From positions 204,860-268,859 of the forward strand of contig JAKQEE010000052.1 in NCBI GenBank assembly GCA_029558635.1: a stretch of 64,000 nucleotides of DNA. Direction: 5' to 3'. The position numbers were made by a program, and so were the translations under genes. The notes below the pieces were generated by a model. That model was not told where the DNA came from, did no database searches, and saw only the letters and a program-made list of their open reading frames with translations. Below are positions 7,851 through 33,779 of this stretch, piece by piece; the stretch's first letter is position 1; each line of letters opens with the position of its first letter. The DNA is from Pseudomonadota bacterium (GTDB lineage: Bacteria; Pseudomonadota; Alphaproteobacteria; Micavibrionales; Micavibrionaceae).

Positions 7851-7945
<95 letters not shown>

Positions 7946-19548: not shown

Positions 19549-20679
19549 ATGTCGAAAGTTCCAGCGTTGTTATCTGTAATCGGTTTGTTGATGGTTGGTG
19601 GCAGCGCCGTGTGTCTGGCCGCCGAGACCACCCAGCCCGCGTTGGAAGTGGTGGCCCAACTGGACCAGCGTCCGGCCAATCTTGCGGTGACAAGTGACGG
19701 CGACATTATCGTTTCTCTTCATCCGTTTGATAATCCCTCCACCCAATTGCTGATGATCAAAAGTGACGGCACGCAAGATCCGTTTCCCAGCAAAGAATGG
19801 AACAGCGGCCAGCCTGATCTCAACGGTCTGGGGTTTGTCAATGTTATCGGGGTTCGTTGCACGCCTTCCGATGAAGTGATTGCTCTGGATATCGGTGATA
19901 AAGATCATGCGCCGCGAATGGTGTTTTTCAATCTCGGAGTCCAGCAGGCCACGCGCGAGGTTTATATTCCACGCGATTTTACAACCGACCAATCCTTCCT
20001 TCAGGATTTTGCCTATGACTGGGAAAAAGACCGTGCCTATATCGCAGATATGGGGCAGGCCGACTTATCCGCTCCGGCGCATCCGGCGTTGATCGACGTT
20101 GCGCCGTCTGCCGGATGGGTGCGACGCGTATTGCCGGATTTTGAAGAATTTATGCCACCGGAAAAACCTTTGGAGATTGGCGGCAAGGTTCTGAGGATTG
20201 AAAAAGACGGGAAGGAGATTCCGGTTCGGGCGGCGCTCAATTCGATTACGATTGACCCGCAAATGGATTGGCTTTATTTCGCGCCAATGGGTGAGGGGAA
20301 GCTTTACCGCGTGCCGATTTCTCGCGTGTCCGATATGACTTATTCAAAGGATGATATTTTGAAGCGTCTGGAAGTTGTTTCCGACAAGAAACCGGCGAGT
20401 GACGGGATTACGGTTGATTCTGCCGGTAATGTTTATGTGGCGGCCATCGGCAAAGGTGAGATCGGGGTGATAACGCCGGACGGCGAATATAAAACCTATA
20501 TCAAGGATGATCGTCTGGATTGGGTCGACGGGTTCTCATTCGGTCCGGATGGGTATTTGTATGCCACGGTCTCGCAACTTGACCGCGCGCCGTTTTTTAA
20601 CAAAGGCGAAGACAAAAGCCAGAAGCCGTTTCTGATCGTTAGGTTCAAGCCGTTGGCGGATGGCGTGATGGGGCGTTAA
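19549..20679 (+). CDS. secreted beta-propeller protein (SMP-30/gluconolactonase/LRE-like or MRJP/yellow-like)
   Basis: Trimmed to MSKVPALLSVIGLLMVGGSAVCLA, a signal peptide. Repeated blade-like strings are present (DGDIIVSLHP, DGITVDSAGNVYVA, GPDGYLYATVSQL). Confidence 0.5.
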   Translation: MSKVPALLSVIGLLMVGGSAVCLAAETTQPALEVVAQLDQRPANLAVTSDGDIIVSLHPFDNPSTQLLMIKSDGTQDPFPSKEWNSGQPDLNGLGFVNVIGVRCTPSDEVIALDIGDKDHAPRMVFFNLGVQQATREVYIPRDFTTDQSFLQDFAYDWEKDRAYIADMGQADLSAPAHPALIDVAPSAGWVRRVLPDFEEFMPPEKPLEIGGKVLRIEKDGKEIPVRAALNSITIDPQMDWLYFAPMGEGKLYRVPISRVSDMTYSKDDILKRLEVVSDKKPASDGITVDSAGNVYVAAIGKGEIGVITPDGEYKTYIKDDRLDWVDGFSFGPDGYLYATVSQLDRAPFFNKGEDKSQKPFLIVRFKPLADGVMGR

Positions 20680-21977
20680 GACGCTAGTGCGCGGTCGATA
20701 ATCGTTCCGGCGTGTTTGGTGTAAACGCTTAAATCGAAAATTTTATCGAGGGCGGATTTGTCGAGTTTTGATGTTACGTCTGTGTCTTGTTCGAGCATAT
20801 CGCGGAGCGATACTTTGCCGTCTGATTCCCAAACTTTCATCGCGCTGCGCTGGACAATGCGGTAGGCGTCTTCGCGCGAGATGCCGTTTTGCGTGAGGGC
20901 CAGCAAGGTGCGTTGGGAAAACACAAGGCCACCCATGCGGTCCAAATTCGATTTCATGCGGTCGGGGTAGACCAACAGATTTTCAATGACGTTTGCCATA
21001 CGGCCCAGTGCGAAGTCGAGGGCCACGGTTGTATCGGGCGCGATAAAGCGTTCGACCGAGGAATGCGAAATATCGCGTTCATGCCACAAGGCCACGTTTT
21101 CCATTGCGGGGATCACAGCCGAGCGGACCATACGGGCCAGACCCGTCAGATTTTCCGTGAGGATGGGATTGCGTTTATGCGGCATCGCGGAGGAGCCTTT
21201 TTGTTTTTCGGAGAAAAACTCTTCGGCTTCCCTTACTTCGGTGCGTTGCAGGTGGCGAATTTCAATCGCCAGATTTTCAATCGAAGACGCAATCACACCC
21301 ATAACGGCAAAGAACATTGCGTGGCGGTCGCGCGGGATAACCTGCGTCGAGACGGTTTCGGGGGTGAGGCCCAGTTTTTCTGCAACGTAGGATTCAATTT
21401 CGGGCGGGACGGTGGCGTAGGTTCCAACTGCGCCGGAGATCGCGCAGACGGCGACTTCTTTTTTTGCGTCCTGAAGGCGTTTTTTGGCACGGGCAAAGGC
21501 TGCGTAATGGCCTGCGAGCTTGACGCCGAAAGTTGTGGGCTCAGCGTGGATGCCGTGGCTTCGTCCGATGCAGATTGTGTCTTTATGTTCCAGCACGCGC
21601 TTTTTGAGGGCGGCCAAAACTTTATCAAGGTCAGTCAATAAAATATCTGCGGACTGGGTCAGTTGGACCGCAAAGGTGGTGTCGAGGACATCAGACGATG
21701 TCATGCCCTGATGCATGAAGCGGGCTTCTTCGCCGACATATTCGGCAACGTTGGTCAGGAAGGCGATGACGTCGTGTTTCACGTCGCGTTCGATTTCATC
21801 AATGCGGGCGGCGTTGAAATTTCCGCGTTCGCGCAGGGCTTTTGAGACGCCTTGCGGGATCGTGCCGTTTTGCTCCATCGCTTCGGCGGCGAGTGTTTCG
21901 ACTTCCAGCATGATGCGGAATTTATTATTGGCTTCCCAGATGGCAGCCATGTCGGGGCGGGTGTAGCGTGGGATCAT
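20676..21977 (-). CDS. purB: adenylosuccinate lyase
   Basis: Carries the fumarate-lyase signature GSSAMPHKRNP. 433 aa. Confidence 0.95.
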   Translation of the reverse strand: MIPRYTRPDMAAIWEANNKFRIMLEVETLAAEAMEQNGTIPQGVSKALRERGNFNAARIDEIERDVKHDVIAFLTNVAEYVGEEARFMHQGMTSSDVLDTTFAVQLTQSADILLTDLDKVLAALKKRVLEHKDTICIGRSHGIHAEPTTFGVKLAGHYAAFARAKKRLQDAKKEVAVCAISGAVGTYATVPPEIESYVAEKLGLTPETVSTQVIPRDRHAMFFAVMGVIASSIENLAIEIRHLQRTEVREAEEFFSEKQKGSSAMPHKRNPILTENLTGLARMVRSAVIPAMENVALWHERDISHSSVERFIAPDTTVALDFALGRMANVIENLLVYPDRMKSNLDRMGGLVFSQRTLLALTQNGISREDAYRIVQRSAMKVWESDGKVSLRDMLEQDTDVTSKLDKSALDKIFDLSVYTKHAGTIIDRALAS

Positions 21978-22696
21978 GATGGTAGCAGTCCTTTATTGCG
22001 CATGGAGGTTGTGCCGCTTTTCGATACAACAATATGGTCGTGGATGACAATCCCTAATGGCCCCGCGGCGGCGATTATCTGGGCGGTCATGTCGATGTCG
22101 GCCTTTGATGGGGTCGGGTCGCCGCTCGGGTGGTTGTGAACCAGAATAATGGCCGTGGCCGAAAGTTCCAGCGCGCGTTTCACGATTTCGCGCGGGTAGG
22201 CGGGGGTGTGGTCCACCGTGCCTGATTGCTGGGTTTCATCAGCAATCAGCTCGTTTTTCTTATTCAGAAAGAGCAAGCGGAAATGTTCTTTCTTCTCGAA
22301 GCCCATCGTGGCCTGAACGTAATCCATCAGGCGCGACCAACTGTTGAGGATGGGCTGGTTCAAAACTTCGTGTTTCATAAAGTGGAAGGCGGCGGCTTTG
22401 ATCGCGCGCAGTGCTGTAATGGATGTGTCGGTCAGGCCCATGCGCGAGAGATCGGCGTCGGATGCATGAAAGACCGCATTAAACGATCCAAATTGCGAGA
22501 GAAGGGCCTTGGCCAGCGGTTTGACGTCCTTGCGCGGGATCGCCATAAAGAGAATGAGTTCAAGGATTTCATAGTCGGCCAGAGCGTCCACGCCACCCCT
22601 TAAAAACCGTTCGCGCAGACGGTCGCGGTGGCCCGTATAGTGCGGGGCGGGAGTGTCGTCTTTTATCAAAGCAGGGTTATCGGCACTTTTGGGCAT
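21974..22696 (-). CDS. radC: RadC-family JAB-domain protein
   Basis: Carries HNHPSGDPTPSKADI (JAMM motif). It overlaps purB by 4 nt. Confidence 0.9.
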   Translation of the reverse strand: MPKSADNPALIKDDTPAPHYTGHRDRLRERFLRGGVDALADYEILELILFMAIPRKDVKPLAKALLSQFGSFNAVFHASDADLSRMGLTDTSITALRAIKAAAFHFMKHEVLNQPILNSWSRLMDYVQATMGFEKKEHFRLLFLNKKNELIADETQQSGTVDHTPAYPREIVKRALELSATAIILVHNHPSGDPTPSKADIDMTAQIIAAAGPLGIVIHDHIVVSKSGTTSMRNKGLLPS

Positions 22697-22736
22697 GAGG
22701 GCAGTATAGCAGCCTATTTCCGAAAGGCTAGGGTTG

Positions 22737-23474
22737 TTATCCTGATTGCCCGCTTTGCGGACTGCCCCCCATTTGGGGAGAGCTTGGTCCAGTTTGTGCC
22801 GCCATTTGCTCGGGGAATGGGGCGGGCTGGGGCCAGCCGTCCAGCCAGTCCATCGGTTGCTGTGGTTTCATTTGTTTTTGCCACAGTTTCAGTGTTGCCC
22901 TAAGTGTTTCGCCGTTGCTGAGGCGGGTTTCAAGCAGGTCGTAGCATCGTGCCGATTGCCCGAACCAATTCATCACCTTCAAGAGAAGTCCTCTCTTTTC
23001 TGTCTCGAATGTTGCGTATCTGCCGAAGAAGAAGGCGTTTTTTTTCAGGCGATCCAGAATGTAGTCAACCCTGCCTTCCGGAAAAAGGCACTCATAAAGG
23101 TTTCCAAGAAGCTTCGGGTGCTTGCGGAGGAGCGTATTTCCGAGGGTTGCATCGTCGAGGATGAATTGCTTCATAAACCACTGGTCGCTCTTTCCGATCT
23201 GTACAAGAAGACGTTTTATCGAGAACAGGTTGATCGGGTCAGCCAAACCGGGATCTGCGAGTATGTTGTTAAGGCCTACACGGACTTCGCTGTCCATCAT
23301 CCGTGCTTTGGCCGTTTGGATTTCGCTGTCGCTGAATCTAAGCTCCATATCTTTGGATGAAGGCAAAAGATTTCCTGAAGTTGAAAAGGCTTCAGTCAGT
23401 TCGGGGATGGGCATGGTGTTTCCGTAAAGAAAGTTACGTAAATATTGGAGGGGGGGATTCGTTCCTTCATTCAA
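22737..23474 (-). CDS. hypothetical protein with a Pro/Gln-rich C-terminal tail
   Basis: A 245-aa ORF with no recognisable motif. The tail is QPAPFPEQMAAQTGPSSPQMGGSPQSGQSG. Confidence 0.5.
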   Translation of the reverse strand: MNEGTNPPLQYLRNFLYGNTMPIPELTEAFSTSGNLLPSSKDMELRFSDSEIQTAKARMMDSEVRVGLNNILADPGLADPINLFSIKRLLVQIGKSDQWFMKQFILDDATLGNTLLRKHPKLLGNLYECLFPEGRVDYILDRLKKNAFFFGRYATFETEKRGLLLKVMNWFGQSARCYDLLETRLSNGETLRATLKLWQKQMKPQQPMDWLDGWPQPAPFPEQMAAQTGPSSPQMGGSPQSGQSG

Positions 23475-23605
23475 TCAAACTCTTCCTTATTGTGCGCGAC
23501 AAGATGCTTTTTTCTTTATTTCACCGGATATTTTGTTGTAGCGTTTTCATGCTTAACGAAATTTAATTATAAAATATATATCGTTTCTGGCCTCGGGAGG
23601 AAGAC

Positions 23606-24199
23606 ATGATGCCATTTTCGTCGAATGCTGCGTATTGTTCCGACTGGGTCCTCTCGCCGACAACGTTTATTACCGACGTGCGGGCGATGATGGATCTGCT
23701 TTCCACTTTAAAATTCGATCACGATATTTGCAATTGGCAGGCGGTGTTTGTCACCGATCCGCGGGTTTTGATGAAGATTCTACCGCAAGAGGTGAGAGCA
23801 GAAAGCGATTTTGCCGTAGTGTTTGGAGTCAATCTGTCGGCGTGGGACAAACCCCATCCGAATTTGTGGAGCAGAGCAACATACGAAGAGCGGTCGCGTT
23901 ATATTGATGACAGGCTGGCGATGATGCGTGGCGACGACCACCGGCAGCGTGACCGTGCGATGCGGGCTGTGGGAATGGCTGCAGGATTTCTGATCGCAAA
24001 GGCGCGGAATCTGAAATATGCGGTGAACTTCCTACATGATTTCGAAAGTGCCGAGATTGCGCACGAAGTCGGGTTGCCCGATTCCTATCAGGTCACGATG
24101 ATCGTGACCTTAAAGCGGGCGATGCAGCCCCTTCGGCGAGAGGGTGAAAATCTCGTACCCGTTTTCCGTGACGGCGAGGGAATGCTCAAACTGAGCTGA
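23606..24199 (+). CDS. hypothetical protein (weak nitroreductase-fold resemblance)
   Basis: 197 aa. The C-terminal AVGMAAGFLIAKARNLKYAVNFLHDFESAEIAHEVGLPDSYQVTMIVTL resembles the nitroreductase dimer-interface/FMN region. The last 90 nt overlap the convergent map gene. Confidence 0.4.
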   Translation: MMPFSSNAAYCSDWVLSPTTFITDVRAMMDLLSTLKFDHDICNWQAVFVTDPRVLMKILPQEVRAESDFAVVFGVNLSAWDKPHPNLWSRATYEERSRYIDDRLAMMRGDDHRQRDRAMRAVGMAAGFLIAKARNLKYAVNFLHDFESAEIAHEVGLPDSYQVTMIVTLKRAMQPLRREGENLVPVFRDGEGMLKLS

Positions 24200-24997
24200 G
24201 AGGCCTTTGTCGCGGGTGACGGCGGTCCATCCGTCTTGCAACACTTTCGTTTCAAAGGTTCCGGTGTTGATCATTGGTTCAATGGTGAAGAACATTCCGG
24301 GTTCGAGGATGAGGCTGTCGGACGAGGGGTTATAATAATGCAGAATTTGCGGTTCGGCGTGGAATGTCAGGCCCAGACCGTGGCCGCAGAAATCACGTAC
24401 CACTGAAAAACGATTGGGGAGGGCGACGGCTTCAATCGCTTTGCCAATGTCGCCCAATGTTGCGCCGGGTTTGACGACTTCGATCCCCGCCATCATCGCA
24501 TCGTATGTGACATCCACCAGTTTTTTTGCTTTCACGTTCGGCTTTCCGGCATAGTACATGCGGCTGGTGTCGCCGTGCCATCCATCCACGATCACGGTGA
24601 CGTCGATATTCACAATGTCGCCGTGCATCAATTTTTTAGGGCCCGGAATGCCGTGGCAGACGACGTGATTGATCGACGTGCAGATTGATTTCGGGAAGCC
24701 GCGATAGTTGAGCGGAGCCGGAATCGCGCCGTTTTTGGTGATGAATTCATGGCAGATGCGGTCGAGTTCTTCGGTGGTCACGCCGACATCGACATGCTCT
24801 GCGATCATATCAAGCGTTTCGGCGGCCAGTTTTCCGGCTTTTCTCATCCCTTCGAAATCGGCTTCGCTATGGAGCTCAATGCCTTGGGAAAACTTGTTTT
24901 TGGGCGCGGTCTGGGTCACTGTCTTTATCCTCTTTCCTCCTGTAATTAAAGCAAAAGGCCTGCTCTGTCCATAAAGCCAAAAGGAAAAGTTTGACAT
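24110..24997 (-). CDS. map: type I methionine aminopeptidase
   Basis: Metal-ligand blocks are present (DIVNIDVTVIVDGWHGDTSRMY, CGHGLGLTFH, FTIEPM, QFEHS). ORF 24110..25132 was trimmed to M46. The exact start is uncertain. Confidence 0.9.
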   Translation of the reverse strand: MSNFSFWLYGQSRPFALITGGKRIKTVTQTAPKNKFSQGIELHSEADFEGMRKAGKLAAETLDMIAEHVDVGVTTEELDRICHEFITKNGAIPAPLNYRGFPKSICTSINHVVCHGIPGPKKLMHGDIVNIDVTVIVDGWHGDTSRMYYAGKPNVKAKKLVDVTYDAMMAGIEVVKPGATLGDIGKAIEAVALPNRFSVVRDFCGHGLGLTFHAEPQILHYYNPSSDSLILEPGMFFTIEPMINTGTFETKVLQDGWTAVTRDKGLSAQFEHSLAVTENGYEIFTLSPKGLHRPL

Positions 24998-25228
24998 TTT
25001 TAAAATGAAAGTGTTAGCCTTTCTTTCATGCAAACCAAAAACTACCACGTTCTGGCCACGATGACGATGCGAATGATGCGCATGCGTAGCGGCAGGGCGT
25101 AAGGTTTCGGCGTAGTTTTTAAATTTCTCCATTCTTTATGATCGACCCCCTGCCAATCCAAGCGAATGTGGCGAGGTGAGCGCGTTCCGAATTTGTTTTT
25201 CAGCAATTTTTGGTTTTAGGAGATAAAA

Positions 25229-25477
25229 ATGACAGTACAATTTGGAGATGTTATCAGCGGGCTTTTGTTTGACGGCTTTACGGTGGCTGTTGACGATATA
25301 CCGGAAGTCTTTTCAGGGGTTCGGGGTGTTCGCCCCAGAAACAAAGAGGAGGATTGGGGTATTGTTGTCGATGTCGGCGGGGTCGAGTATGAGTTTGCAA
25401 CCATTCCCGATGCTGAAGGGGTTGGGAACAAAATTTACAATGCGGTCCATGTTTTGCGCAACTTTTGTTGCATTTAG
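25229..25477 (+). CDS. hypothetical small protein ending in ...NFCCI
   Basis: A strong Shine-Dalgarno is present (TAGGAGATAAAAATG). 82 aa. Confidence 0.5.
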   Translation: MTVQFGDVISGLLFDGFTVAVDDIPEVFSGVRGVRPRNKEEDWGIVVDVGGVEYEFATIPDAEGVGNKIYNAVHVLRNFCCI

Positions 25478-25513
25478 CCGCAGAAAATGTATTTTATATG
25501 AAGGAGATGAATT

Positions 25514-25864
25514 ATGGGCAGTTTTGAACATTTGAAAGAAGTGTTTTCCGGTGAAGGAGGGGCGTTGATTGGCCCAGTGGAGGGTTTGCATCCTGTTAAA
25601 GTTACGTGTGAGTTATCGCCGCAAAGCGGGGATGACGCTGCGTATTTTATATCGGCTGTCGATAAGGGAGGTCAATCTACTTTGGTCGGGTCTGTTCCGG
25701 CGGGCCTTTCTGGGATTACGACCCGATTGGAAGTTTTGAAAAATGTTCTGGTCGATTATTTTGGTGGAGCTTCCAAAGCGGAAACTTCTTTCCAACGACA
25801 AGTTGGGGTCCGTTCAATTGATAGGGGATTTTCTGTTCCGGTTGGTCATGGGTGTTGTGTCTAG
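25514..25864 (+). CDS. hypothetical small protein ending in ...GHGCCV
   Basis: The Shine-Dalgarno is GAAGGAGATGAATTATG. 116 aa. A terminator follows. Confidence 0.5.
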   Translation: MGSFEHLKEVFSGEGGALIGPVEGLHPVKVTCELSPQSGDDAAYFISAVDKGGQSTLVGSVPAGLSGITTRLEVLKNVLVDYFGGASKAETSFQRQVGVRSIDRGFSVPVGHGCCV

Positions 25865-25897
25865 GAAAGGGATATCTTTTCTGTTGTTATTTACTGG

Positions 25898-25929
25898 TCA
25901 AGGGGTGTTGGTGTCCCTTGATTTTTTTT
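25898..25929 (+). terminator. rho-independent terminator
   Basis: tcaagggg-tgttggtg-tcccttga followed by a T8 run. Confidence 0.7.
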
Positions 25930-25954
25930 GTGCCGACCTTTACTTTCTGATGAC

Positions 25955-26722
25955 ATGACAGACAAACTCACAGCAGCGCTTCTGGTTATCGGGAACGAAA
26001 TTCTTTCGGGCCGGACACAGGACACGAACACACCGTGGATCGCCGGAAAACTTAATCTGCGCGGGATACGTTTGATTGAAGTGCGTGTCGTTCCGGATGT
26101 TGAAGAGTGCATTGTCGAAGCCGTCAATGAATTGCGTTCCCGCGCGGCGTATCTGTTTACCACGGGCGGGATCGGCCCTACGCATGACGATATTACGACG
26201 GAGTCGATTGCCAAAGCTTTCGGCGTTGGGGCTATTGTGAATGAGGAGGCGCGTCTGGCGTTGCTCAACCATTACCGCAACGAAGCGGATCTCACTCCGG
26301 CAAGGATGAAGATGGCGCATATTCCTGATGGAGCTACGCTTATTCCCAATCCGGTGTCGGGTGCGCCGGGGTTTCAAATCGGAAATGTTTATGTGATGGC
26401 CGGTGTGCCGCGGATCATGCAGGCGATGCTCGATCATATCCTGCCGGAATTGGAGAAGGGGCATCCGATCCTATCCAACACGGTGACGTGCGATTTGCCC
26501 GAGAGTGTGGTTGCCGAAGGATTGACCGCGATCCAGAATAAATATGACAGCGTCGAAATCGGGTCCTATCCGCATTTTCGTATGGGGGAGCTGGGGCTTT
26601 CGGTTGTGCTGCGCTCAACCGAGAATAATCAGTTGCATGAAGCAACGCAGGACGTTGTATCGTTGATCGACAAGGTCGGCGGCAAGGCGTTTGCTGTTAG
26701 TGTGCAGTCAAACCCCTCATAA
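25955..26722 (+). CDS. CinA-like MoCF/molybdopterin-binding domain protein
   Basis: Carries AALLVIGNEILSGRTQDTN and LFTTGGIGPTHDDIT. Trimmed to the ATG at 25955. Confidence 0.8.
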   Translation: MTDKLTAALLVIGNEILSGRTQDTNTPWIAGKLNLRGIRLIEVRVVPDVEECIVEAVNELRSRAAYLFTTGGIGPTHDDITTESIAKAFGVGAIVNEEARLALLNHYRNEADLTPARMKMAHIPDGATLIPNPVSGAPGFQIGNVYVMAGVPRIMQAMLDHILPELEKGHPILSNTVTCDLPESVVAEGLTAIQNKYDSVEIGSYPHFRMGELGLSVVLRSTENNQLHEATQDVVSLIDKVGGKAFAVSVQSNPS

Positions 26723-26780
26723 GTTATGAGATGTCACAGTCGGAATTTGGGCCTGCGCGGTGCGCAGGCCTTGCCAATTT

Positions 26781-28766
26781 CTATGTCTGTGAAGTCGGTT
26801 CCGGCGGCAAGGCGTGAGATGTTATTTCCTCTTTCATTTTGATGAGGAATTCATCAGCCGTGAATGTTTCCTGAGTGTTGACCCCTAGGCGACGGACTGT
26901 GATTGTGCCGTCCTCTTGTTCTTTGTTGCCGATAATTCCGACATAGGTCACTTTTGCGTTCATGTGTTCGCGGATTTTATAGGAAATTTTCTCGTTCCGT
27001 TCATCATGTTTCGCGCGAATGCCTGCAAATTTCAGTTTTTCCGTCAGGGTGCGGGCGGCATAGTTGTTGGCTTCGGTCACGCCGGAAATCACGACTTGAA
27101 CCGGAGCCAGCCACAGGGGGAGGTTGCCGCCGGTGCTTTCGATCAGAAGACCGATAAAGCGTTCAAACGTTCCGAATACGGCGCGGTGGATCATGACAGG
27201 GGGATGTTTTTGGCCGTCGGCTCCCATGTAGGATGCGTCGAGACGTTCGGGCAGCATGAAGTCCAATTGGCATGTACCGCATTGCCATGAGCGGCCGATC
27301 GAGTCCACTAAATGGAATTCATATTTCGGGCCATAAAATGCACCGTCGCCAGGGGCGTATTCGAACGGTATATCGAGTTCGTGCAAAGCATCGGCCATAG
27401 CTTTTTCCGCTTTGTCCCACGTTTCATCTGATCCGACGCGTTTTTCCGGACGTGTGGCGAGGAAGAGTTTGATGTCAGTGAATCCAAAATCTTTATAGAC
27501 ATCTTTAAATAGGGCGACGAAGCGTTTGACCTCGTCACCGATTTGGTCTTCGCGGCAGAAGATATGTGCATCGTCTTGGGTCATTTGACGAACGCGCATC
27601 AGGCCGTGGAGGGCACCGTGCGCTTCGTTACGGTGACAGCATCCCATCTCCGCCATACGGATAGGCAGGTCGCGGTAGCTTTTGATCCCGTGTTTGAAAA
27701 TCTGGACGTGGGCCGGACAGTTCATGGGTTTCAGGGCCATAAACTCTTTCGGTTCGGTTTTAAAGATCGGTCCATCCAGTTCGATGTTTGGCACGACATC
27801 AGGCACAACGAACATGTTCTCGCGGTATTTGTCCCAGTGGCCCGAGGCTTCCCAGAATTTCGAGTGCATCAGTTGCGGGGTTTTGACCTCGACATAGCCA
27901 TCGGCATAAATTTTCTGGCGGATATAGTTTTCAAGTTCGCGATAAATTGTAAAGCCGTGCGGATGCCAGAAGACTGAGCCTTGGGCTTCTTCCTGCAAAT
28001 GGAACAAATCCATTTCCTTGCCGATTTTACGGTGGTCGCGTTTTTCAGCTTCTTCGATCTGGTGCAGGTATGCATCCAGTTCTTCCTGAGTGCGCCACGC
28101 CGTTCCGTAGACACGGGTCAGCATTTCATTCTGGCTGTTGCCGCGCCAATATGCACCGGCCAATTTCGTCAGTTTGAACGCGCCGATTTTGCCCAAAGAC
28201 GGCAGGTGTGGCCCGCGACACAAGTCGATAAAGGCTGTCTCGCCCTGATGATAAATCTGGAACGCGTCAGACTCCGGTGTGTCTTCGATGATTTTGACTT
28301 TGTAATCTTCGCCGCGTTCTTTGAACAAGGCAATCGCATCCGCGCGGTTGTAAACTTTCTTCTCGATCTTGTGACCTTCTTTTACGATGCGGTGCATCTC
28401 TTTCTCGATTTTTTCGAGATCATCGGACGAGATCGGCGTTTCAAACGCGATATCGTAGTAAAAACCGTCCTTGATCGTAGGTCCGATGGCCAGACGTGCG
28501 GAGGGGTAGAGGTTTTTGATTGCGCGTGCCAGAACCTGCGCGGCAATCGTATGGCGCATAATATCCAGACCGTCATCGTCATTGGATGTCAGAATGGCAA
28601 TTTGAGCGTTATCGGGTACGGGGTCGGAGAGATCGCGCAGTTCGCCGTTGACACGAACCGCGACGGCAGCTTTGGAGAGGCTAGTGCTGATGGTTTTCGC
28701 GACCTCAAGACCGTTCACTTCTGTCTCGAACTCTTTGAAAGACCCATCGGGCAGCACCACGCGCAT
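26781..28766 (-). CDS. thrS: threonine--tRNA ligase
   Basis: The TGS N-terminus is MRVVLPDGSFKEF. Class II motifs and the zinc site (CRGPH) are present. Trimmed from 28820 to the ATG at 28766. Confidence 0.95.
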   Translation of the reverse strand: MRVVLPDGSFKEFETEVNGLEVAKTISTSLSKAAVAVRVNGELRDLSDPVPDNAQIAILTSNDDDGLDIMRHTIAAQVLARAIKNLYPSARLAIGPTIKDGFYYDIAFETPISSDDLEKIEKEMHRIVKEGHKIEKKVYNRADAIALFKERGEDYKVKIIEDTPESDAFQIYHQGETAFIDLCRGPHLPSLGKIGAFKLTKLAGAYWRGNSQNEMLTRVYGTAWRTQEELDAYLHQIEEAEKRDHRKIGKEMDLFHLQEEAQGSVFWHPHGFTIYRELENYIRQKIYADGYVEVKTPQLMHSKFWEASGHWDKYRENMFVVPDVVPNIELDGPIFKTEPKEFMALKPMNCPAHVQIFKHGIKSYRDLPIRMAEMGCCHRNEAHGALHGLMRVRQMTQDDAHIFCREDQIGDEVKRFVALFKDVYKDFGFTDIKLFLATRPEKRVGSDETWDKAEKAMADALHELDIPFEYAPGDGAFYGPKYEFHLVDSIGRSWQCGTCQLDFMLPERLDASYMGADGQKHPPVMIHRAVFGTFERFIGLLIESTGGNLPLWLAPVQVVISGVTEANNYAARTLTEKLKFAGIRAKHDERNEKISYKIREHMNAKVTYVGIIGNKEQEDGTITVRRLGVNTQETFTADEFLIKMKEEITSHALPPEPTSQT

Positions 28767-28831
28767 AATATAAGCTCCTGTAAATGTTGTGATTTCAATG
28801 ATGTGTAACATTGATATCAAAAGAAAACAAC

Positions 28832-28850
28832 TGGTACGGGCGCGGAGATT
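28832..28850 (-). repeat. tRNA 3'-end-like 19-mer (att-like remnant) in the thrS upstream region
   Basis: The reverse complement is AATCTCC GCGCCCGT A CCA, that is T-stem 3' strand, acceptor 3' strand, discriminator and CCA. It matches the 3' end of the intact tRNA-Leu (31301-31319) at 15 of 19 positions, in the same orientation. Confidence 0.4.
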
Positions 28851-29009
28851 GGCTTGGACATTGTCGCTTATGTTTTTTGCAACTTATAAAATACATAACT
28901 AATAATTTGTAAAATCATAATTACGATACGCACCGTTAAGAATCTTTGCATTTTTCCCCGTTTTGGCCTATATTCATGAATAATTCCTTAACAGAATTGG
29001 GGGTTTATC

Positions 29010-29690
29010 ATGTCTCTCATGTCCGCATCATCTGCTCTGCGTAAAGCTGCTTATGCCTTGCCGCTGGCGTTTGCTTTGGCTGCGGGAACGGCGAGTGCCG
29101 GTGGGTTGGATGCAGGAACATGCTACAAGCGCCCAGTTGTTGCGAGCGTCATGGGTGATGAGTCCCAATCTATGCTTATGGCTGGGAATAGAGATGCATC
29201 GGAAGTAGAAAACCGCAACGCAAATGCGTTTTTTATGAATGATGATGGCTCAGGTTATGTGATTGAAGGGGGCGCGCCGTTGGGTGTCAAGCCATCGCCG
29301 GACAGCAAGTCTTGCGTAGCCTACGCTTTTAATCATGGACACGCATACAACCCTAATGATCCTATGCCTGCGTGGGCAAAGAAGATTAAAGCTGTTGGTA
29401 GTGCTGATATTCAGAAATCATACAAGAATGGGGCGCGTATTATTTTTGGGGCACGAACCTACTCCGTGGGAATGGATGGGAAAGAGGTTCCTGGGAAGCA
29501 TCTGGTTGTGTTGAAGGCTGGTTCTGAGGCCTTTGTATGGACAGTTGATCCTGAAGGTATCCCAGGTGTGGGGTTTGAAATGAAAGATGTTCAAATTTTG
29601 CCCAAGATGGCTGAGTTGATGAACAAACCTCCGGCAGTATCTTCTGTCGCGGGCGACACGGTTGCTATGGCATCTCCCACAGTCAGATAG
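29010..29690 (+). CDS. secreted hypothetical protein
   Basis: Signal peptide ...ALPLAFALAAGTASA. 226 aa with no recognisable motif. Confidence 0.55.
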   Translation: MSLMSASSALRKAAYALPLAFALAAGTASAGGLDAGTCYKRPVVASVMGDESQSMLMAGNRDASEVENRNANAFFMNDDGSGYVIEGGAPLGVKPSPDSKSCVAYAFNHGHAYNPNDPMPAWAKKIKAVGSADIQKSYKNGARIIFGARTYSVGMDGKEVPGKHLVVLKAGSEAFVWTVDPEGIPGVGFEMKDVQILPKMAELMNKPPAVSSVAGDTVAMASPTVR

Positions 29691-29700
29691 TGTTTTGAGA

Positions 29701-30807
29701 TTAGAAAAAAGCGGACTGCATTGAAGCAACGTTTGTTGTGTTGGCGGCCACTTGGCGGTTTGATATGGGCGTTTGATTGAGTTGTGGGGGGGGCTCTGAA
29801 TTGGATTTGATTCCCGAGTGTTGGTTGAAGGATTTTGTCGGGTTTTGGTCGGCTGTGATCTCGCAAGATGCACTCATGGCAAATTGTGGTGAGTTACTGG
29901 TGTTGGCGCAGGGCAACTTTGCATCATCTGCTCTTTCAGATGTTGAGTCTTTTTGAGAGCCGTTGCGTTGTGTTATGTTTTCAGATGTTAGAGTTTGGAT
30001 GTGTCCGGATTCTTCATTTTCTGCCCGATGATCCAACCAATTCACTTGGTCTTGTGTTAACAATCCATCGTGGATCATTTGTTCGCGTTGTCTTTGTTTT
30101 TCTGCTTCGCTAAGGCTGGGGTCGGCCATCATGTTGCGGTAGCGGAGCATGTTTTTATAGAGTTTCTTCTTATCCTTTGGATCGGCAATGCCTTGATCGA
30201 CCATATCGTCGAACGTGTTGTCCCAGTTATCAAGCATATTGTCCAAGCTATCGACGATGTCCAGAACAGAGAGGCTTCTACCATCTGCCGTTCTAATACG
30301 CTGATTGCTCAATATATCCCGATCTTGCTGGCTTAGTTCTTTCCGCTGTTGTTCCATTTTTTCTTCGTGGGCGTCGATCATGGCTTCGGCGAGGGAGGCT
30401 TCGAGTCTCTTTTGTTTCTTTTCTTCTTCGCTCAGGCCTGCGAATTCGTCGAACAGGTCGTCGAGATAGCTAAAATAATTGTTGGTGCGGTTTTCAACTG
30501 CGTAGCCGTTGATGGTCGGGTCGTTGGCCTGAACCAATTGGTCGGGATTATATTGTTCGTAAATTCGTTCGGCTGCACGGTTGCTGTTAGGGGAGAATGT
30601 GCTCAACACTTCTCCGACAGACATATTTGCAATCGAGGGATCTTCGCCTTTGGGTGACGGTTCGGGAGCTGCGGCGGTTGTTTCAACTCCGAGCTCCAGA
30701 TTCTCATCGGTCGCATTATCCGCGACCGGATTGTTCCGTTCTAAGACTGCCATTTTCTCCCCCCGGAGAAGTCTTGTTATTTTGAAGTCCATAGAGCGTT
30801 GGCCCAT
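29701..30807 (-). CDS. hypothetical acidic coiled-coil protein
   Basis: A 368-aa ORF rich in D/E/Q/N with coiled-coil-like stretches (EEEKKQKRLEASLAEAMIDAHEEKMEQQRKEL). A likelier start is M19 at 30753, which follows GGGGGAGAAA. Confidence 0.55.
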   Translation of the reverse strand: MGQRSMDFKITRLLRGEKMAVLERNNPVADNATDENLELGVETTAAAPEPSPKGEDPSIANMSVGEVLSTFSPNSNRAAERIYEQYNPDQLVQANDPTINGYAVENRTNNYFSYLDDLFDEFAGLSEEEKKQKRLEASLAEAMIDAHEEKMEQQRKELSQQDRDILSNQRIRTADGRSLSVLDIVDSLDNMLDNWDNTFDDMVDQGIADPKDKKKLYKNMLRYRNMMADPSLSEAEKQRQREQMIHDGLLTQDQVNWLDHRAENEESGHIQTLTSENITQRNGSQKDSTSERADDAKLPCANTSNSPQFAMSASCEITADQNPTKSFNQHSGIKSNSEPPPQLNQTPISNRQVAANTTNVASMQSAFF

Positions 30808-31300
30808 AAGATCTTCTTACAGGTTATTTATATATGAAAAATATTGATGACAAATTAAGATTGGACAGAATCCAATATATTTTTATGAAAATATATTGGG
30901 AGTCCGTCTCTATAAGGGGCTGAGAAACAGCCTACATATTTATAATATATCAATAGTTGATAGATTGCAATATATTTTTGCATCTCTATCCTATTGATAT
31001 TCAATAAAATATCAAAAAAGATTGATTGAAATATGTGCGGCTCGTTGGATTTTTGGCAAAAAAGGATCAGCATTTTCATGTTGGGTTACGGTTGGCAGCA
31101 GATGGCTGTTCTTGACAATGTGACCGGACTGACAGATGAGGCTGCTTTGAAAACCAGTGGAAATTTGGTTGTATAGCCTTGGAAATAGATGGTTTGCGCA
31201 TTTGGGGATAGAATGGGCCTAATAGAATCCTCCAAAGTGATAATGTACTTTACGAATGGTTCTTATCAGAAAAAGCGAACATAAGGCTGGGCCTATTAAG

Positions 31301-31632
31301 TGGTGCGGGCGGGGGGACTTGAACCCCCACAGGCCTTGCGGCCCTACGGATTTTCTTACCATCTACGGCTTTCGCCGCGCTCGTGAGTCACGAGTTTGTG
31401 GTCTGGACTATCCCTTCACCGTTGCAAAGTTCTTTGCTCTAGGTGCTGCCCGTCTAGTCTCTACACCTTCCTTTAGCCCGTTAGGGCTTTAGGCTTGGCT
31501 CGGGATTGCCATGGGCTGCTCGCCAGCCTGTAAGGTTTCCCCGAATTTGAGCAGTTCTGCATCAAAGGTTTCCCGATGAGCACTCAATATTTTGTCTAAG
31601 TCCGTTGCGTCTACCGATTTCGCCACGCCCGC
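31301..31632 (-). tRNA. tRNA-Leu(UAA) interrupted by a group I intron
   Basis: The 5' exon runs 31632->31598: GCGGGCGTGGCGAAATCGGTAGACGCAACGGACTT. The 3' exon runs 31354->31301: AAAATCCGTAGGGCCGCAAGGCCTGTGGGGGTTCAAGTCCCCCCGCCCGCACCA. Joined, they give a canonical 89-nt class II tRNA. The acceptor stem is GCGGGCG/CGCCCGC, the anticodon stem is ACGGA/TCCGT, the loop is CUUAAAA, and the variable arm carries a GCAA loop. Confidence 0.9.
31355..31597 (-). ncRNA. group I intron (IC3-like), 243 nt, no ORF
   Basis: Core blocks on the minus strand are CAAATTCGGGGAAACC (31549-31534), ATGGCAATCCCGAGCCAAGCC (31512-31492), GAAGGTGTAGAGACTAGACGGGCAGCACCT (31470-31441) and GGGATAGTCCAGACC (31414-31400). 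GACTA/TAGTC forms P7. A GCGGC-GAAA-GCCGT hairpin and a terminal G are also present. Confidence 0.85.
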
Positions 31633-31688
31633 TTATATTTTGAGGCATTATCTATAACCTCTAATTGACTTTGGGCCAAGAGTAAATT

Positions 31689-32876
31689 TCAGGTATCTGA
31701 TTGTTTTTGCGTGTCATTTTTTACAGGATTTACTCTGCGAACATTGATTGCGGCGGCATTAATACTTGTCTTGATGTGGGAAGCGTAGAAATTCTCGATC
31801 ATTTCGACGCTGGTTCGGCAGTTTTTAGCTATCTGGTAAATATCGGCTCCCTCCATCAGGCGAAGGCAGATATAGGTATGCCTGAGGCTGTAGGCTGTCC
31901 GGCGGCGGCCCTCGCGGTCAAATTTCAAATTTTCCTCTGTGAGGATGGCGTTGAACAGCTCCCGATGGGTCTTAGGGAAGATCAGGTCTGTTTTTTGCGG
32001 ATTGTTTCTCTCAATAAGGCGTTTGAATGGGAGGACTGCTCCCGTCATGCTTTTGCAATAGCCAACCCCTCGTTTACCTCTCACGCTAATTTCAAGAATT
32101 GTCTCGCCTGTGTCCAAGTCCTCGACAATTTCTACGTCACGATATTCGAGGCGTGACGCTTCGTCAGGGCGCAGTCCGGTATTCGCCATGAACAATACAT
32201 AGTCATGTAATTGCTCCGATTCCCATTTGTAACGGGGGCGGGTAGGGTGATGCGCTCTTTTCCGCGTGGCTTCATAGAGCTGCTTATATTCTTCGGGGGA
32301 AAACCATGCGCGGTGAGAGATTTTGGCTGAGGCACGGTATGGCTCCGAAAAATCCGGAAGATGATCCAGCCAGTCATGCCGTAGGGCCGTTTTGAGAATC
32401 TGCCGTAAGGCGACGATTTCTTGGTGGATGGTATTTCTCGCGGGAGGCTTCCCCCATTTTGCCATGGCTTTTTCGCGGCGATGGATTCTGTATTCCTGAA
32501 TAAGGCCCGCTGTGATCTCGGTCAGTCCCTTATTCCCGAAAAAGGGAAGAAGGTGATTTTTGATTCGAAGGTTTTGTTGTTCGACGTGGCGCTTGCTGCG
32601 CTGACCTTCGGTTATCAATTCGTATTCCCGTACAAAAAGGTCGGCGGCTTTTTTGAAGGTCTTTTCGTTCTTCAATTCTCCGCTGCGTTTCTTGTTGTGG
32701 AGATCAAGGAACCAGTCTTCGGCAAAGTCTTTTGCTTTGGCGAGACTTTCTTCTTTTGTACTGGTGCGCCAGTTCTTTCCGTTCAGATATGTAGAGCACT
32801 GCCAACAGGTGCTGTTCTCTCTTTTATAAACATGGAGCTTTCCGCCCATGAGGGAGTGTTTTGCTGTGTATGCCAT
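31689..32876 (-). CDS. int: tyrosine-type site-specific integrase
   Basis: 395 aa. The catalytic pattern is TGLRPDEASRL (Arg), AYSLRHTYICLRL (HxxR) and the terminal NFYASH (Tyr). It lies adjacent to a tRNA gene. Confidence 0.9.
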   Translation of the reverse strand: MAYTAKHSLMGGKLHVYKRENSTCWQCSTYLNGKNWRTSTKEESLAKAKDFAEDWFLDLHNKKRSGELKNEKTFKKAADLFVREYELITEGQRSKRHVEQQNLRIKNHLLPFFGNKGLTEITAGLIQEYRIHRREKAMAKWGKPPARNTIHQEIVALRQILKTALRHDWLDHLPDFSEPYRASAKISHRAWFSPEEYKQLYEATRKRAHHPTRPRYKWESEQLHDYVLFMANTGLRPDEASRLEYRDVEIVEDLDTGETILEISVRGKRGVGYCKSMTGAVLPFKRLIERNNPQKTDLIFPKTHRELFNAILTEENLKFDREGRRRTAYSLRHTYICLRLMEGADIYQIAKNCRTSVEMIENFYASHIKTSINAAAINVRRVNPVKNDTQKQSDT

Positions 32877-33003
32877 AATTCGCCCCTATGTGTCATTTTG
32901 TGTAAGACTTGTGTAAGTCTAAAATAGGGTGAATTTCATGTCAAATTTGATGCTAAATATTTGAATTCATTATATTTATAAATTATGTATTTTTGTTCTT
33001 TTA

Positions 33004-33045
33004 AGATTTTAAGTCTGCTGCGTCTACCTGTTTCGCCACGGGGCC
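33004..33045 (-). pseudogene. intronless 5'-half fragment of a second tRNA-Leu(UAA)
   Basis: The reverse complement is GGCCCCGTGGCGAAACAGGTAGACGCAGCAGACTTAAAATCT. This covers the acceptor 5' strand, the D arm, anticodon stem GCAGA, an uninterrupted loop CTTAAAA and the first 3 nt of the return strand, after which homology stops. It matches the spliced form of the intact gene at 33 of 41 positions. Confidence 0.7.
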
Positions 33046-33089
33046 AAAAGTCTGAATCTTTTAGCGGTAAAAGGTCGGGGTTTCAAGTG

Positions 33090-33422
33090 TCATAGCACCG
33101 CGAGAATGTTGTTTAGAGCTTCGCGGCCTTTATCGGTCAGAAAAAGTTCCTTTTTGCGGCGTTCGGTCTCGGAAATCTTCATCGTGATGAATTCATAAGG
33201 AATCCCTTTCTGGCGGTAGCTTGAAAGGGCGCCGACTATCCTTGAAACCGTCGAGAGGGCCAGCCCCGTTTTTTCAGAGAGATCGGTTAAGGAGCAGCCT
33301 TCGTTGCGGGCGATTTCGGATAGGCAAATGGCGTATTGGATTGGGAATTCGGCGTCAATTCTCTGCAACTGGGAGAGAAGGGCTAACAGAGTCTCATTCT
33401 TCTTTGTATCGAGTTGTGTCAT
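33090..33422 (-). CDS. MarR-like winged-helix transcriptional regulator
   Basis: 110 aa. The segment CSLTDLSEKTGLALSTVSRIVGAL followed by a wing (ISETERRKKELFLTDKGREAL) fits the MarR wHTH layout. Confidence 0.7.
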   Translation of the reverse strand: MTQLDTKKNETLLALLSQLQRIDAEFPIQYAICLSEIARNEGCSLTDLSEKTGLALSTVSRIVGALSSYRQKGIPYEFITMKISETERRKKELFLTDKGREALNNILAVL

Positions 33423-33779
33423 CAGGGGGTGTTGCGTTTTTTCGGGTTTCGTCCCGGAGAACCGACCACGGAGTCCAGATGATCTGTGTTTTCGGCAAAT
33501 CCAGTATTACCTCTTTATTCCATTTATTGATAGATGGCAACAGTTTTGAATCGAAAAATGTTGATATTTCGATATAGAGTGCCCCCACTCTGTTCATTCT
33601 GATGTACATAGCCCACTCAATTCCTTGTAAAACCCAATACCGCAGCCTTAAGCATGTATCTTCTCAAGAGATTGTTAATTTTTTGATAAATTTAAATGCA
33701 CCTATACAACTAAAGGTTATATATCCTAAAGTGATATATGTTGAGGTTGCTTTTATCTATTCGGCTCTATCCCATTTTT

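Follow-up and report, generated by a model that had tools for sequence, protein, structure and literature searches.

A tyrosine integrase element that appears to disrupt tRNA-Leu(UAA) in the anticodon loop and to bring an intron-bearing replacement gene

Crossover in the anticodon loop is reportedly one of the sublocation classes of tRNA gene integration that Williams set out in NAR in 2002. The window analyzed here, a 64,000-nt stretch of contig JAKQEE010000052.1 (Micavibrionaceae; assembly GCA_029558635.1), contains a tyrosine-type integrase gene (int) between the 5' half of one tRNA-Leu(UAA) gene and a complete tRNA-Leu(UAA) gene that is interrupted by a group I intron. The closest precedent for integration of this type is the tRNA-dependent lysogeny of actinobacteriophages (Fionnbharth/K4, Cluster L; Guerrero-Bustamante & Hatfull, mBio 2024, PMC10865867), of which the Lactobacillus prophage Lj965 had given an earlier hint. 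As in that system (PMC10865867), a tyrosine integrase and arm-type sites are combined with a core of about 10 bp inside a host tRNA gene, the tRNA is rebuilt at neither junction, and a compensating tRNA of the same isotype is present. Unlike the lysogenic case, the carriers found here contain no phage genes, have defense genes or a relaxase as cargo, and occur in Acidobacteriota, Alphaproteobacteria, and others; the crossover falls in the anticodon loop of tRNA-Leu; the replacement is split by a group I intron, or bears core substitutions, where the crossover takes place; and the need for the tRNA is one that we infer. The window copy also lacks its right end. Compared with classic anticodon-loop islands and prophages (classic tRNA-targeting genomic islands are catalogued in the Islander database [PMC4383910]), the locus is alike in that int adjoins attL and in the position of the crossover, within the symmetric anticodon stem-loop, and it differs in that the window-type element would bring no 3' half, so that the target is destroyed and a separate complete gene takes its place.

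The reading preferred here, at a probability of roughly 80%, is the first of the two readings in the original prediction: a resident intronless tRNA-Leu(UAA) gene would have been invaded and replaced by an element that brought int and a complete tRNA-Leu gene of its own, intron included, and the window would hold the left end of a member of a cross-phylum family. At the level of sequence comparison, this is borne out by the target and the left boundary, by empty sites, by the joint travel of int and the replacement tRNA, and by the recovery of both ends in two relatives.

All features of the locus are on the minus strand of the window, in the order tRNA-Leu(UAA) 5' half, 127-nt spacer, int open reading frame (ORF), 56 nt, and complete intron-bearing tRNA-Leu(UAA), and int, the intron tRNA, and the fragment were each found within 1 nt of their predicted positions. 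The intact tRNA-Leu gene was located correctly except for its start, which is at 31632 and not at 31633. The 5' half (42 nt; 33045..33004; GGCCCCGTGGCGAAACAGGTAGACGCAGCAGACTTAAAATCT) contains the acceptor strand, the D arm, the 5' strand of the anticodon stem, the whole anticodon loop, and 2 to 3 nt more, after which tRNA homology ceases. Direct comparison gave the predicted match between the fragment and the spliced replacement gene at 33 of 41 positions, and a repeat search paired the fragment with the replacement 5' exon (87% over 31 nt). The acceptor strands (GGCCCCG in the fragment versus GCGGGCG in the replacement) and the anticodon stems (GCAGA versus ACGGA) differ, and a chimera of the fragment and the replacement 3' exon was rejected as a tRNA by ARAGORN, in agreement with the expectation that the fragment could not pair with the intact 3' half. 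The att core GACTTAAAATC (33005..33015, minus strand; approximately tRNA positions 30 to 40), inside which the crossover is placed, occurs once in the window. The fragment is likewise unique there, and the earlier concern that it might be part of a longer repeat family was not borne out.

The empty site, for which comparison with related genomes had been proposed, was found in three contigs (L106, L149, and L152) when metagenome contigs were scanned for the anticodon arm of the fragment together with its expected 3' stem. In these contigs, uvrC, a pentapeptide protein gene, and a MarR/IclR-type helix-turn-helix (HTH) gene, which are syntenic with the left flank of the window, are followed by an intact intronless tRNA-Leu(UAA) gene without an integrase. 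The first 41 to 43 nt of this tRNA-Leu(UAA) are identical to the window fragment (100% over 43 nt in L106). This identity to an intact tRNA-Leu(UAA) at the syntenic site of related contigs excludes a chance match and identifies the fragment as a 5' half of the resident (host) allele, the different allele that had been predicted; the fragment would represent the attL remnant of the disrupted target. Empty L106 and occupied L087 share 80% nucleotide identity over 7.2 kb up to the last base of GACTTAAAATC, where homology stops; tRNA homology in the window extends 1 nt past this point. The empty-site contigs therefore place the left insertion boundary inside the anticodon loop. The MarR/IclR-type winged HTH gene directly upstream of the disrupted tRNA (33090..33422, minus strand) belongs to the host flank, outside the element, and has orthologues in the empty-site contigs and in Micavibrio ARL-13, where they lie upstream of the intact tRNA.

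Both ends were recovered in two complete relatives, one from Bryobacteraceae (L007) and one from Methyloceanibacter (L025), in which the host 3' half, with the core before it, lies 10,538 bp and 11,032 bp downstream, respectively. Joining of the host halves within L007 and within L025 produced ARAGORN-valid tRNA-Leu(UAA) genes, and the far-end 3' halves match the upstream fragments and not the intron-bearing tRNA. The identity block shared by attL and attR in both relatives is GGACTTAAAAT(C), 11 to 12 bp in length. A tRNA is rebuilt at neither junction: attL consists of the 5' half followed by non-tRNA DNA (window, L007, and L025), and attR consists of non-tRNA DNA followed by the 3' half (L007 and L025). 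The cargo of L007 includes the defense genes SoFic-like, nSTAND3/Mrr, and LmuB-like, and that of L025 includes ArdC, Fic, a second integrase, and a MobA/MobL relaxase; no phage structural genes were found in either. Micavibrio aeruginosavorus ARL-13 (L001, CP002382), with a 78%-identical integrase, has the classical arrangement of an intact tRNA-Leu(UAA), int, a 10.2-kb island, and a 52-nt repeat of the 3' half. In ARL-13 and in window positions 20676 to 33422, tRNA-Leu(UAA) and int are located between orthologous cinA (60% amino acid identity) and HTH (58%) genes in opposite orientations, and the tRNA abuts cinA in ARL-13 and the HTH gene in the window and the empty-site contigs. This suggests that the whole tRNA-plus-island segment has been inverted in one of the two lineages.

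Under the proposed mechanism, the tyrosine integrase would recombine the short core (the anticodon loop and flanking bases) with a chromosomal tRNA-Leu(UAA) gene. Since the element would have no matching 3' half, integration would destroy the resident gene, leaving its 5' half beside int and, in complete elements, pushing its 3' half to the far end. Compensation would come from a complete tRNA-Leu gene with the same anticodon, carried just downstream of int (31632..31301), in which the group I intron between U34 and A35 would leave the element's copy of the target without the core at the DNA level.

This replacement gene, whose precursor is 332 nt long, comprises a 5' exon (31598..31632, minus strand) whose last base is U34 (..GGACTT), a 243-nt group I intron (31355..31597), and a 3' exon (31301..31354; AAAATCCGT...CGCCCGCACCA). 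ARAGORN missed the interrupted gene in unspliced window DNA and called the spliced sequence as an 89-nt tRNA-Leu(taa) with a canonical cloverleaf and a long variable arm (type II). The intron matched the full length of Rfam model RF00028 at 55.5 bits (gathering score, 50). In P1, ACUU|AG is paired with UUGAGU, with a U(-1).G wobble that is C-G in the CAA type, and the omega G is the G at 31355, before exon AAAATCC. P1 is paired in all members of a 44-intron alignment, and compensatory changes occur in 28 of the 81 pairs predicted by RNAalifold, a structure in which the P3/P7 pseudoknot cannot be represented. The intron is accordingly read as intact and under structural selection, and it would be expected to self-splice, yielding a working tRNA. 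An extra hairpin of about 20 nt (GGCTGGCGAGCAGCC) at 31500 to 31525 (minus strand) of the window intron is absent from the other 43 aligned introns; the introns of L039 and L075 contain a different insertion of about 45 nt at a neighboring position.

Two tRNA-Leu introns of this kind have been described, Leu.3Ug, the classical tRNA-Leu(UAA) intron of cyanobacteria and plastids (subgroup IC3), and Leu.3Cg, found in Proteobacteria (Williams 2020, 10.1101/2020.01.27.920355). The introns examined here share with them the insertion site CUU|AAAA (CUC|AAAA in the CAA type), the P1 U(-1).G or C-G pair, the omega G, and the match to RF00028. Unlike the classical tRNA-Leu introns, they are hosted by a gene on an integrative element beside its integrase. 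A set of 5,292 intron-split tRNA genes has been assembled by Williams. In the literature searched, no paper was found that links tRNA-Leu group I introns to integrases or islands.

The acceptor stem of the replacement (GCGGGCG/CGCCCGC) is nearly invariant across phyla, while the acceptor stems of the upstream fragments are host specific. At all 40 UAA loci and all 19 CAA loci, the anticodon of the replacement is that of the disrupted gene. A replacement was found at every UAA-targeting locus with downstream sequence, whereas six CAA-targeting loci have none within 8 to 10 kb (hypergeometric probability of about 0.002, for loci that are phylogenetically nonindependent). Replacement tRNAs and introns were sought with Rfam at loci with an apparent lack of them (L014, L015, L020, L060, L061, L047, and L055), and none was found. 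tRNA-Leu(UAA) is the only reader of UUA, and tRNA-Leu(CAA) is dispensable; the presence of a replacement at all UAA-type loci and its absence from some CAA-type loci are as decoding predicts. We infer that the host needs the replacement tRNA after integration at tRNA-Leu(UAA).

The 395-amino-acid int ORF (31689..32876, minus strand) matched PHROG family phrog_1, annotated as integrase (E value, 2.5e-33), and the Pfam SAM-like N-terminal domains (Phage_int_SAM_5 and SAM_3) above their cutoffs; the Pfam catalytic domain scored 22.8 bits, under the cutoff of 27.1, and a sequence-profile search of the PDB with the integrase alignment gave no match. An AF2 model had a predicted local distance difference test (pLDDT) score of 69 overall and >80 for residues 190 to 350, which form the catalytic domain. 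In a Foldseek comparison of this model with the PDB, the top 50 matches listed were all tyrosine recombinases (probability, 1.00 each), including XerA, Cre, lambda Int, Tn1549 Int, XerH, and IntI. Candidate catalytic residues, assigned from the alignment only, are R236 (TGLRPDE), K268, R332 (SLRHT), and Y364, all of which are invariant; the two catalytic His positions are noncanonical, with Y329 at one and no clear His or Trp ahead of Y364 at the other. The modeled fold identifies the ORF as a tyrosine-type integrase. With ratios of nonsynonymous to synonymous substitution (dN/dS) of 0.02 to 0.05 within the family, the gene appears intact and strongly constrained.

Between int and the disrupted tRNA, the left arm of the element (32877..33003, minus strand) contains a predicted sigma70-like promoter (TTGACA-17-TAGACT; 32944..32916) and a putative pair of arm-type integrase sites (TTACACA-AGTC-TTACACA; 32916..32899). 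Within the 120 nt upstream of int, paired TTRCACA-N4-5-TTRCACA motifs were found 30 to 45 nt before the gene in 65 of 85 loci. A second TTRCACA pair, 70 to 85 nt ahead of the attR core, is confined to L001, L007, and L025, the three loci for which attR was found. These paired repeats are plausible arm-type sites flanking the core, as in lambda-type integrases.

Homologues of the integrase number more than 7,000 in the database; the 120 top matches listed were 72 to 98% identical and came from Micavibrio, Rhodospirillales, and Bryobacteraceae. A survey in which one genome per species was scanned recovered 80 loci with a homologous integrase, in Acidobacteriota, Binatia, Gemmatimonadaceae, many Alphaproteobacteria, one Methylococcaceae genome, and others. 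A complete tRNA-Leu with a group I intron was found downstream of int in about 48 of 86 loci, spanning Acidobacteriota, Binatia, Gemmatimonadaceae, and Alphaproteobacteria, on the same strand and 50 to 190 nt away or, occasionally, 1.3 to 2.4 kb away. Most loci have a host-type tRNA-Leu 5' half upstream of int that ends right past the anticodon loop, with break points at ..GACTTAAAATC|, ..GACTCAAAATC|, or ..CTTAAAAGC|. Only three close relatives were found in IMG/VR, and a blastn search of the locus against a phage database returned just weak intron-like matches. Targets of other kinds may also be used by this integrase family: a tRNA-Arg(CCU)-like 5' half (..CAGATTCCTAATC|) broken at the same position lies upstream of a 67%-identical integrase in Methylococcaceae UBA2778 (L047, positions 1 to 180), with no replacement tRNA or intron detected within 10 kb, and a complete tRNA-Met and the 3' part of a tRNA-Lys were observed at L050 and L216, respectively.

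The left-arm-int-tRNA module of L214 is 92.9% identical to that of the window, and homology ends exactly at the 3' end of the tRNA; this divergence right after the tRNA points to a conserved head of 1.67 kb followed by variable cargo. The nucleotide match running from the fragment into int shows 90.7% identity, compared to 70 to 76% for the flanks, and the proportion of synonymous differences (pS) between the window and L072 is 0.41 for int versus 0.67 for the HTH gene and 0.68 for uvrC. By these measures, the element arrived horizontally at the window locus. In L214, a tRNA-like 3' portion (long variable arm, T arm, and acceptor strand; ..GGTATGGGTGCAAGCCCATCGAGGGTTCTTAATCCCTCACTGCCCGCCA) was observed at approximately 1830 to 1900, about 200 nt past the intron-bearing tRNA, and may be a remnant of another attachment site.

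Past the replacement tRNA, the window contains three ORFs without a family match in Pfam, NCBIfam, or PHROG, of 74 amino acids (30855..31079, minus strand), 368 amino acids (29701..30807, minus strand), and 226 amino acids (29010..29690, plus strand), which are possibly residual cargo. The 368-amino-acid protein has only six homologues in the protein database, of which the 70%-identical one sits elsewhere, in an accessory context (L210). These ORFs are followed by thrS, cinA, an M24 peptidase gene, radC, and purB, so that conserved host genes begin about 2.5 kb after the tRNA; all of these except thrS also flank the tRNA-Leu(UAA) of ARL-13. Assignment of thrS to the element would leave attR just as absent. 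The orphan host 3' half, expected as ..TCTGCTATCTGG...CGGGGCCACCA, was not found in the window by searches with the core (one mismatch allowed), with a pattern combining T arm and acceptor, with a host-type tRNA in blastn-short, or with a generic T-arm regular expression. No tRNA remnant was found in the thrS/cinA and thrS/p226 intergenic regions of the window, and look-ups of the window's own integrase for mapping of the right boundary returned the same organism only; the locus is also contained in ENA samples ERZ27257465, ERZ27257442, and ERZ27257434. With no parts of attR in the 31 kb downstream, the right end has been lost or displaced and canonical excision is impossible. In all likelihood, the window copy is stranded, with the cell probably relying on the intron-bearing tRNA that was imported.

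At the DNA level, the intron splits the GGACTTAAAAT(C) block in 38 of 40 UAA replacements and in 5 to 6 CAA replacements. CAA replacements without an intron show changes relative to their targets within the core, of at least three kinds (A31G, C32U, and G30C/C40G). The A31G change is found in an identical 87-nt intronless tRNA-Leu(CAA) (GGCGGGCTGGCGG...GACGGCTCAAAATCGTC...; G31 versus A31 in the targets) at 14 Acidobacteriota loci, including L008, L009, L011 to L013, L017 to L019, L021, L037, L078, L080, and L081; 10 of the 14 are fragment bearing, and the host fragments have differing acceptor stems. At the truncated L081 locus, the 87-nt gene is on the opposite strand. C32U was found in L064, L065, and L218 and G30C/C40G in L058. 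A circular element with attP and an intact attB copy would be expected to recombine with itself when its integrase is of the lambda type. The altered cores fit the view that an element with a full attB copy must disable that copy as a recombination substrate. The second reading in the original prediction, in which the intron splits the core and blocks recombination, is consistent with this pattern. It is plausible that, through the intron or, in intronless variants, through point changes in the core, the replacement gene escapes recombination by the integrase of its own element and by related ones.

Several observations weigh against the reading that a mobile element replaced the resident gene and that its own copy is shielded. 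The host 3' half, a second core, and a second arm-site pair are absent from the 64-kb window, which leaves a complete element unproven here, and the right flanks of the window, L087, L088, L214, and empty L106 are mutually unrelated, making the right boundary unmappable (on the right side, the empty-site contigs share no homology with the window or L087, and the "368-aa" ORF of L087 has none to that of the window). The viral contig L217, of the UAA type, has no replacement in the 2.2 kb on hand. The replacements of L087 (11256-11345), L088, and L089 are of the element type (GCGGGCG acceptor) and precisely intronless with the core intact, and that of L027 is host-like, also with an intact core. 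Locus counts overstate the number of events because the loci are phylogenetically nonindependent, and L072, L087, and L088/L089 show the fragment-int-tRNA arrangement at the uvrC-pentapeptide-HTH position seen in the window, so that an arrangement common to four related lineages could in part reflect vertical inheritance. An explanation in which the int-tRNA module was fixed long ago, is immobile, and is inherited vertically, with int kept for some host function, would draw on that shared position, on the missing attR, and on the strong purifying selection on int, seen even between L087 and L088 (dN/dS, 0.023). The original prediction had set an ancient, fixed arrangement against itself, and the sharing by four lineages is the part of it that was found; yet close relatives have empty sites (L106 and L087 match as far as the core), and synonymous divergence is lower for int than for its flanks. 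Together with the unrelated DNA directly after the tRNA in L214 and the 72 to 98% identity of listed int homologues in several phyla, which indicates ongoing horizontal spread, this makes a stable relic unlikely. It is far less probable that the polarity is truly reversed, with attP carrying a tRNA 5' half, the element being the roughly 1.4 kb between the 5' halves (or reaching upstream), and the intact gene being composed of an element 5' half and a host 3' half. The physical order of 5' half, int, and complete tRNA and the host-type acceptor stem common to fragment and complete gene in L027 would suit such an arrangement, but the GGCCCCG strand of the fragment cannot pair with CGCCCGC of the intact gene, the halves of the intact gene pair with each other and hardly vary between phyla, host DNA lies upstream of the fragment, as shown by synteny with the empty-site contigs, and the far-end 3' halves of L007 and L025 belong with the fragments. 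The reversed polarity described in the original prediction is apparent only: relative to the true target, which is the fragment, int is immediately 3' of the crossover, and the intact tRNA is cargo. Lowest in probability, and hardly credible, is a local origin of the fragment, in which tRNA-Leu would have been duplicated in tandem, one copy would have decayed to a pseudogene, and an unrelated integrase would have landed between the two. The match to the 5' exon at 33 of 41 positions could be taken that way, but full identity is to the host-type gene found in related genomes and not to the neighboring gene, and the break falls at the same nucleotide past the anticodon loop in most loci of several phyla.

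The role of the intron within the preferred reading of a replaced tRNA gene is less certain. The proposal that the intron is an anti-self-targeting device, that this integrase family has been a major vehicle spreading Leu.3Ug and Leu.3Cg among non-cyanobacterial phyla, and that loss of the right end creates a host dependence fixing intron and integrase is tentative, and its odds fall somewhat short of even. It has a counterpart in the Randau-Soll hypothesis, according to which, in the account given by Sugahara et al. 2012 (PMC3293823), introns or splits at att sites guard archaeal tRNA genes from integration; that paper adds that an element-brought intron could protect the integrated element. 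In both cases, an intron at the attachment sequence would remove the recombination target and leave the RNA product intact; the archaeal idea concerns chromosomal genes spliced through a protein endonuclease, unlike the bacterial, self-splicing-type intron in an element's replacement gene. The contrary possibility, a serious one that still stops short of being probable, is that an element captured a tRNA-Leu already holding the classical Leu.3Ug intron, which would have no shielding role. The intronless element-type tRNAs with an intact core in L087 and L088, beside an intact int, and the host-like intact tRNA downstream of int in L027 are readily accommodated by a neutral passenger, the 38 intron-bearing UAA loci may stem from a single capture, and group I introns at this site are old and widespread (Williams 2020, 10.1101/2020.01.27.920355). 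Such a passenger does not account for the finding that intronless replacements are nearly always changed within the 11- to 12-nt core, by at least three different changes, or for the occurrence of introns in UAA replacements and CAA replacements alike, each type with a matching P1 (U.G versus C-G). The syntenic relatives L087, L088, and L089, whose int genes are 85% identical at the amino acid level, could represent either intron loss or a pre-intron state and are the chief exception to the proposed shielding of the core.

Integration that destroys a tRNA gene and brings its own, until now demonstrated by experiment only in actinobacteriophages, would by these comparisons extend to a very large non-phage island family in Acidobacteriota, Alphaproteobacteria, Binatia, and Gemmatimonadaceae, with defense and mobilization cargo. 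A classical self-splicing intron would be tied to a mobile DNA carrier, which offers a testable route for the patchy distribution of tRNA-Leu group I introns outside cyanobacteria, and the loci open the old idea that tRNA genes are shielded from integrases by introns to testing in bacteria. Such loci escape standard tRNA finders, as well as island finders that expect a restored tRNA together with a 3' repeat, and are probably underannotated.

Some assembly and window features were also recorded. In L004, L005, L006, L214, L215, and L072, many metagenome contigs break approximately 90 to 160 nt upstream of int (in the tRNA fragment or the left arm), within int, or just after it, as would be expected if several genomes per sample share the 1.7-kb head module and their assemblies collapse there. 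The sole ARAGORN tRNA call in the window is a tRNA-Ser(GCU) at 7851 to 7945 (minus strand), which is unrelated to the int-tRNA locus. AT-rich direct repeats of about 44 nt, 72 to 75% identical, were found at 30841 to 30979, downstream of the replacement tRNA, and at 33516 to 33547, in or near the upstream region of the HTH gene.

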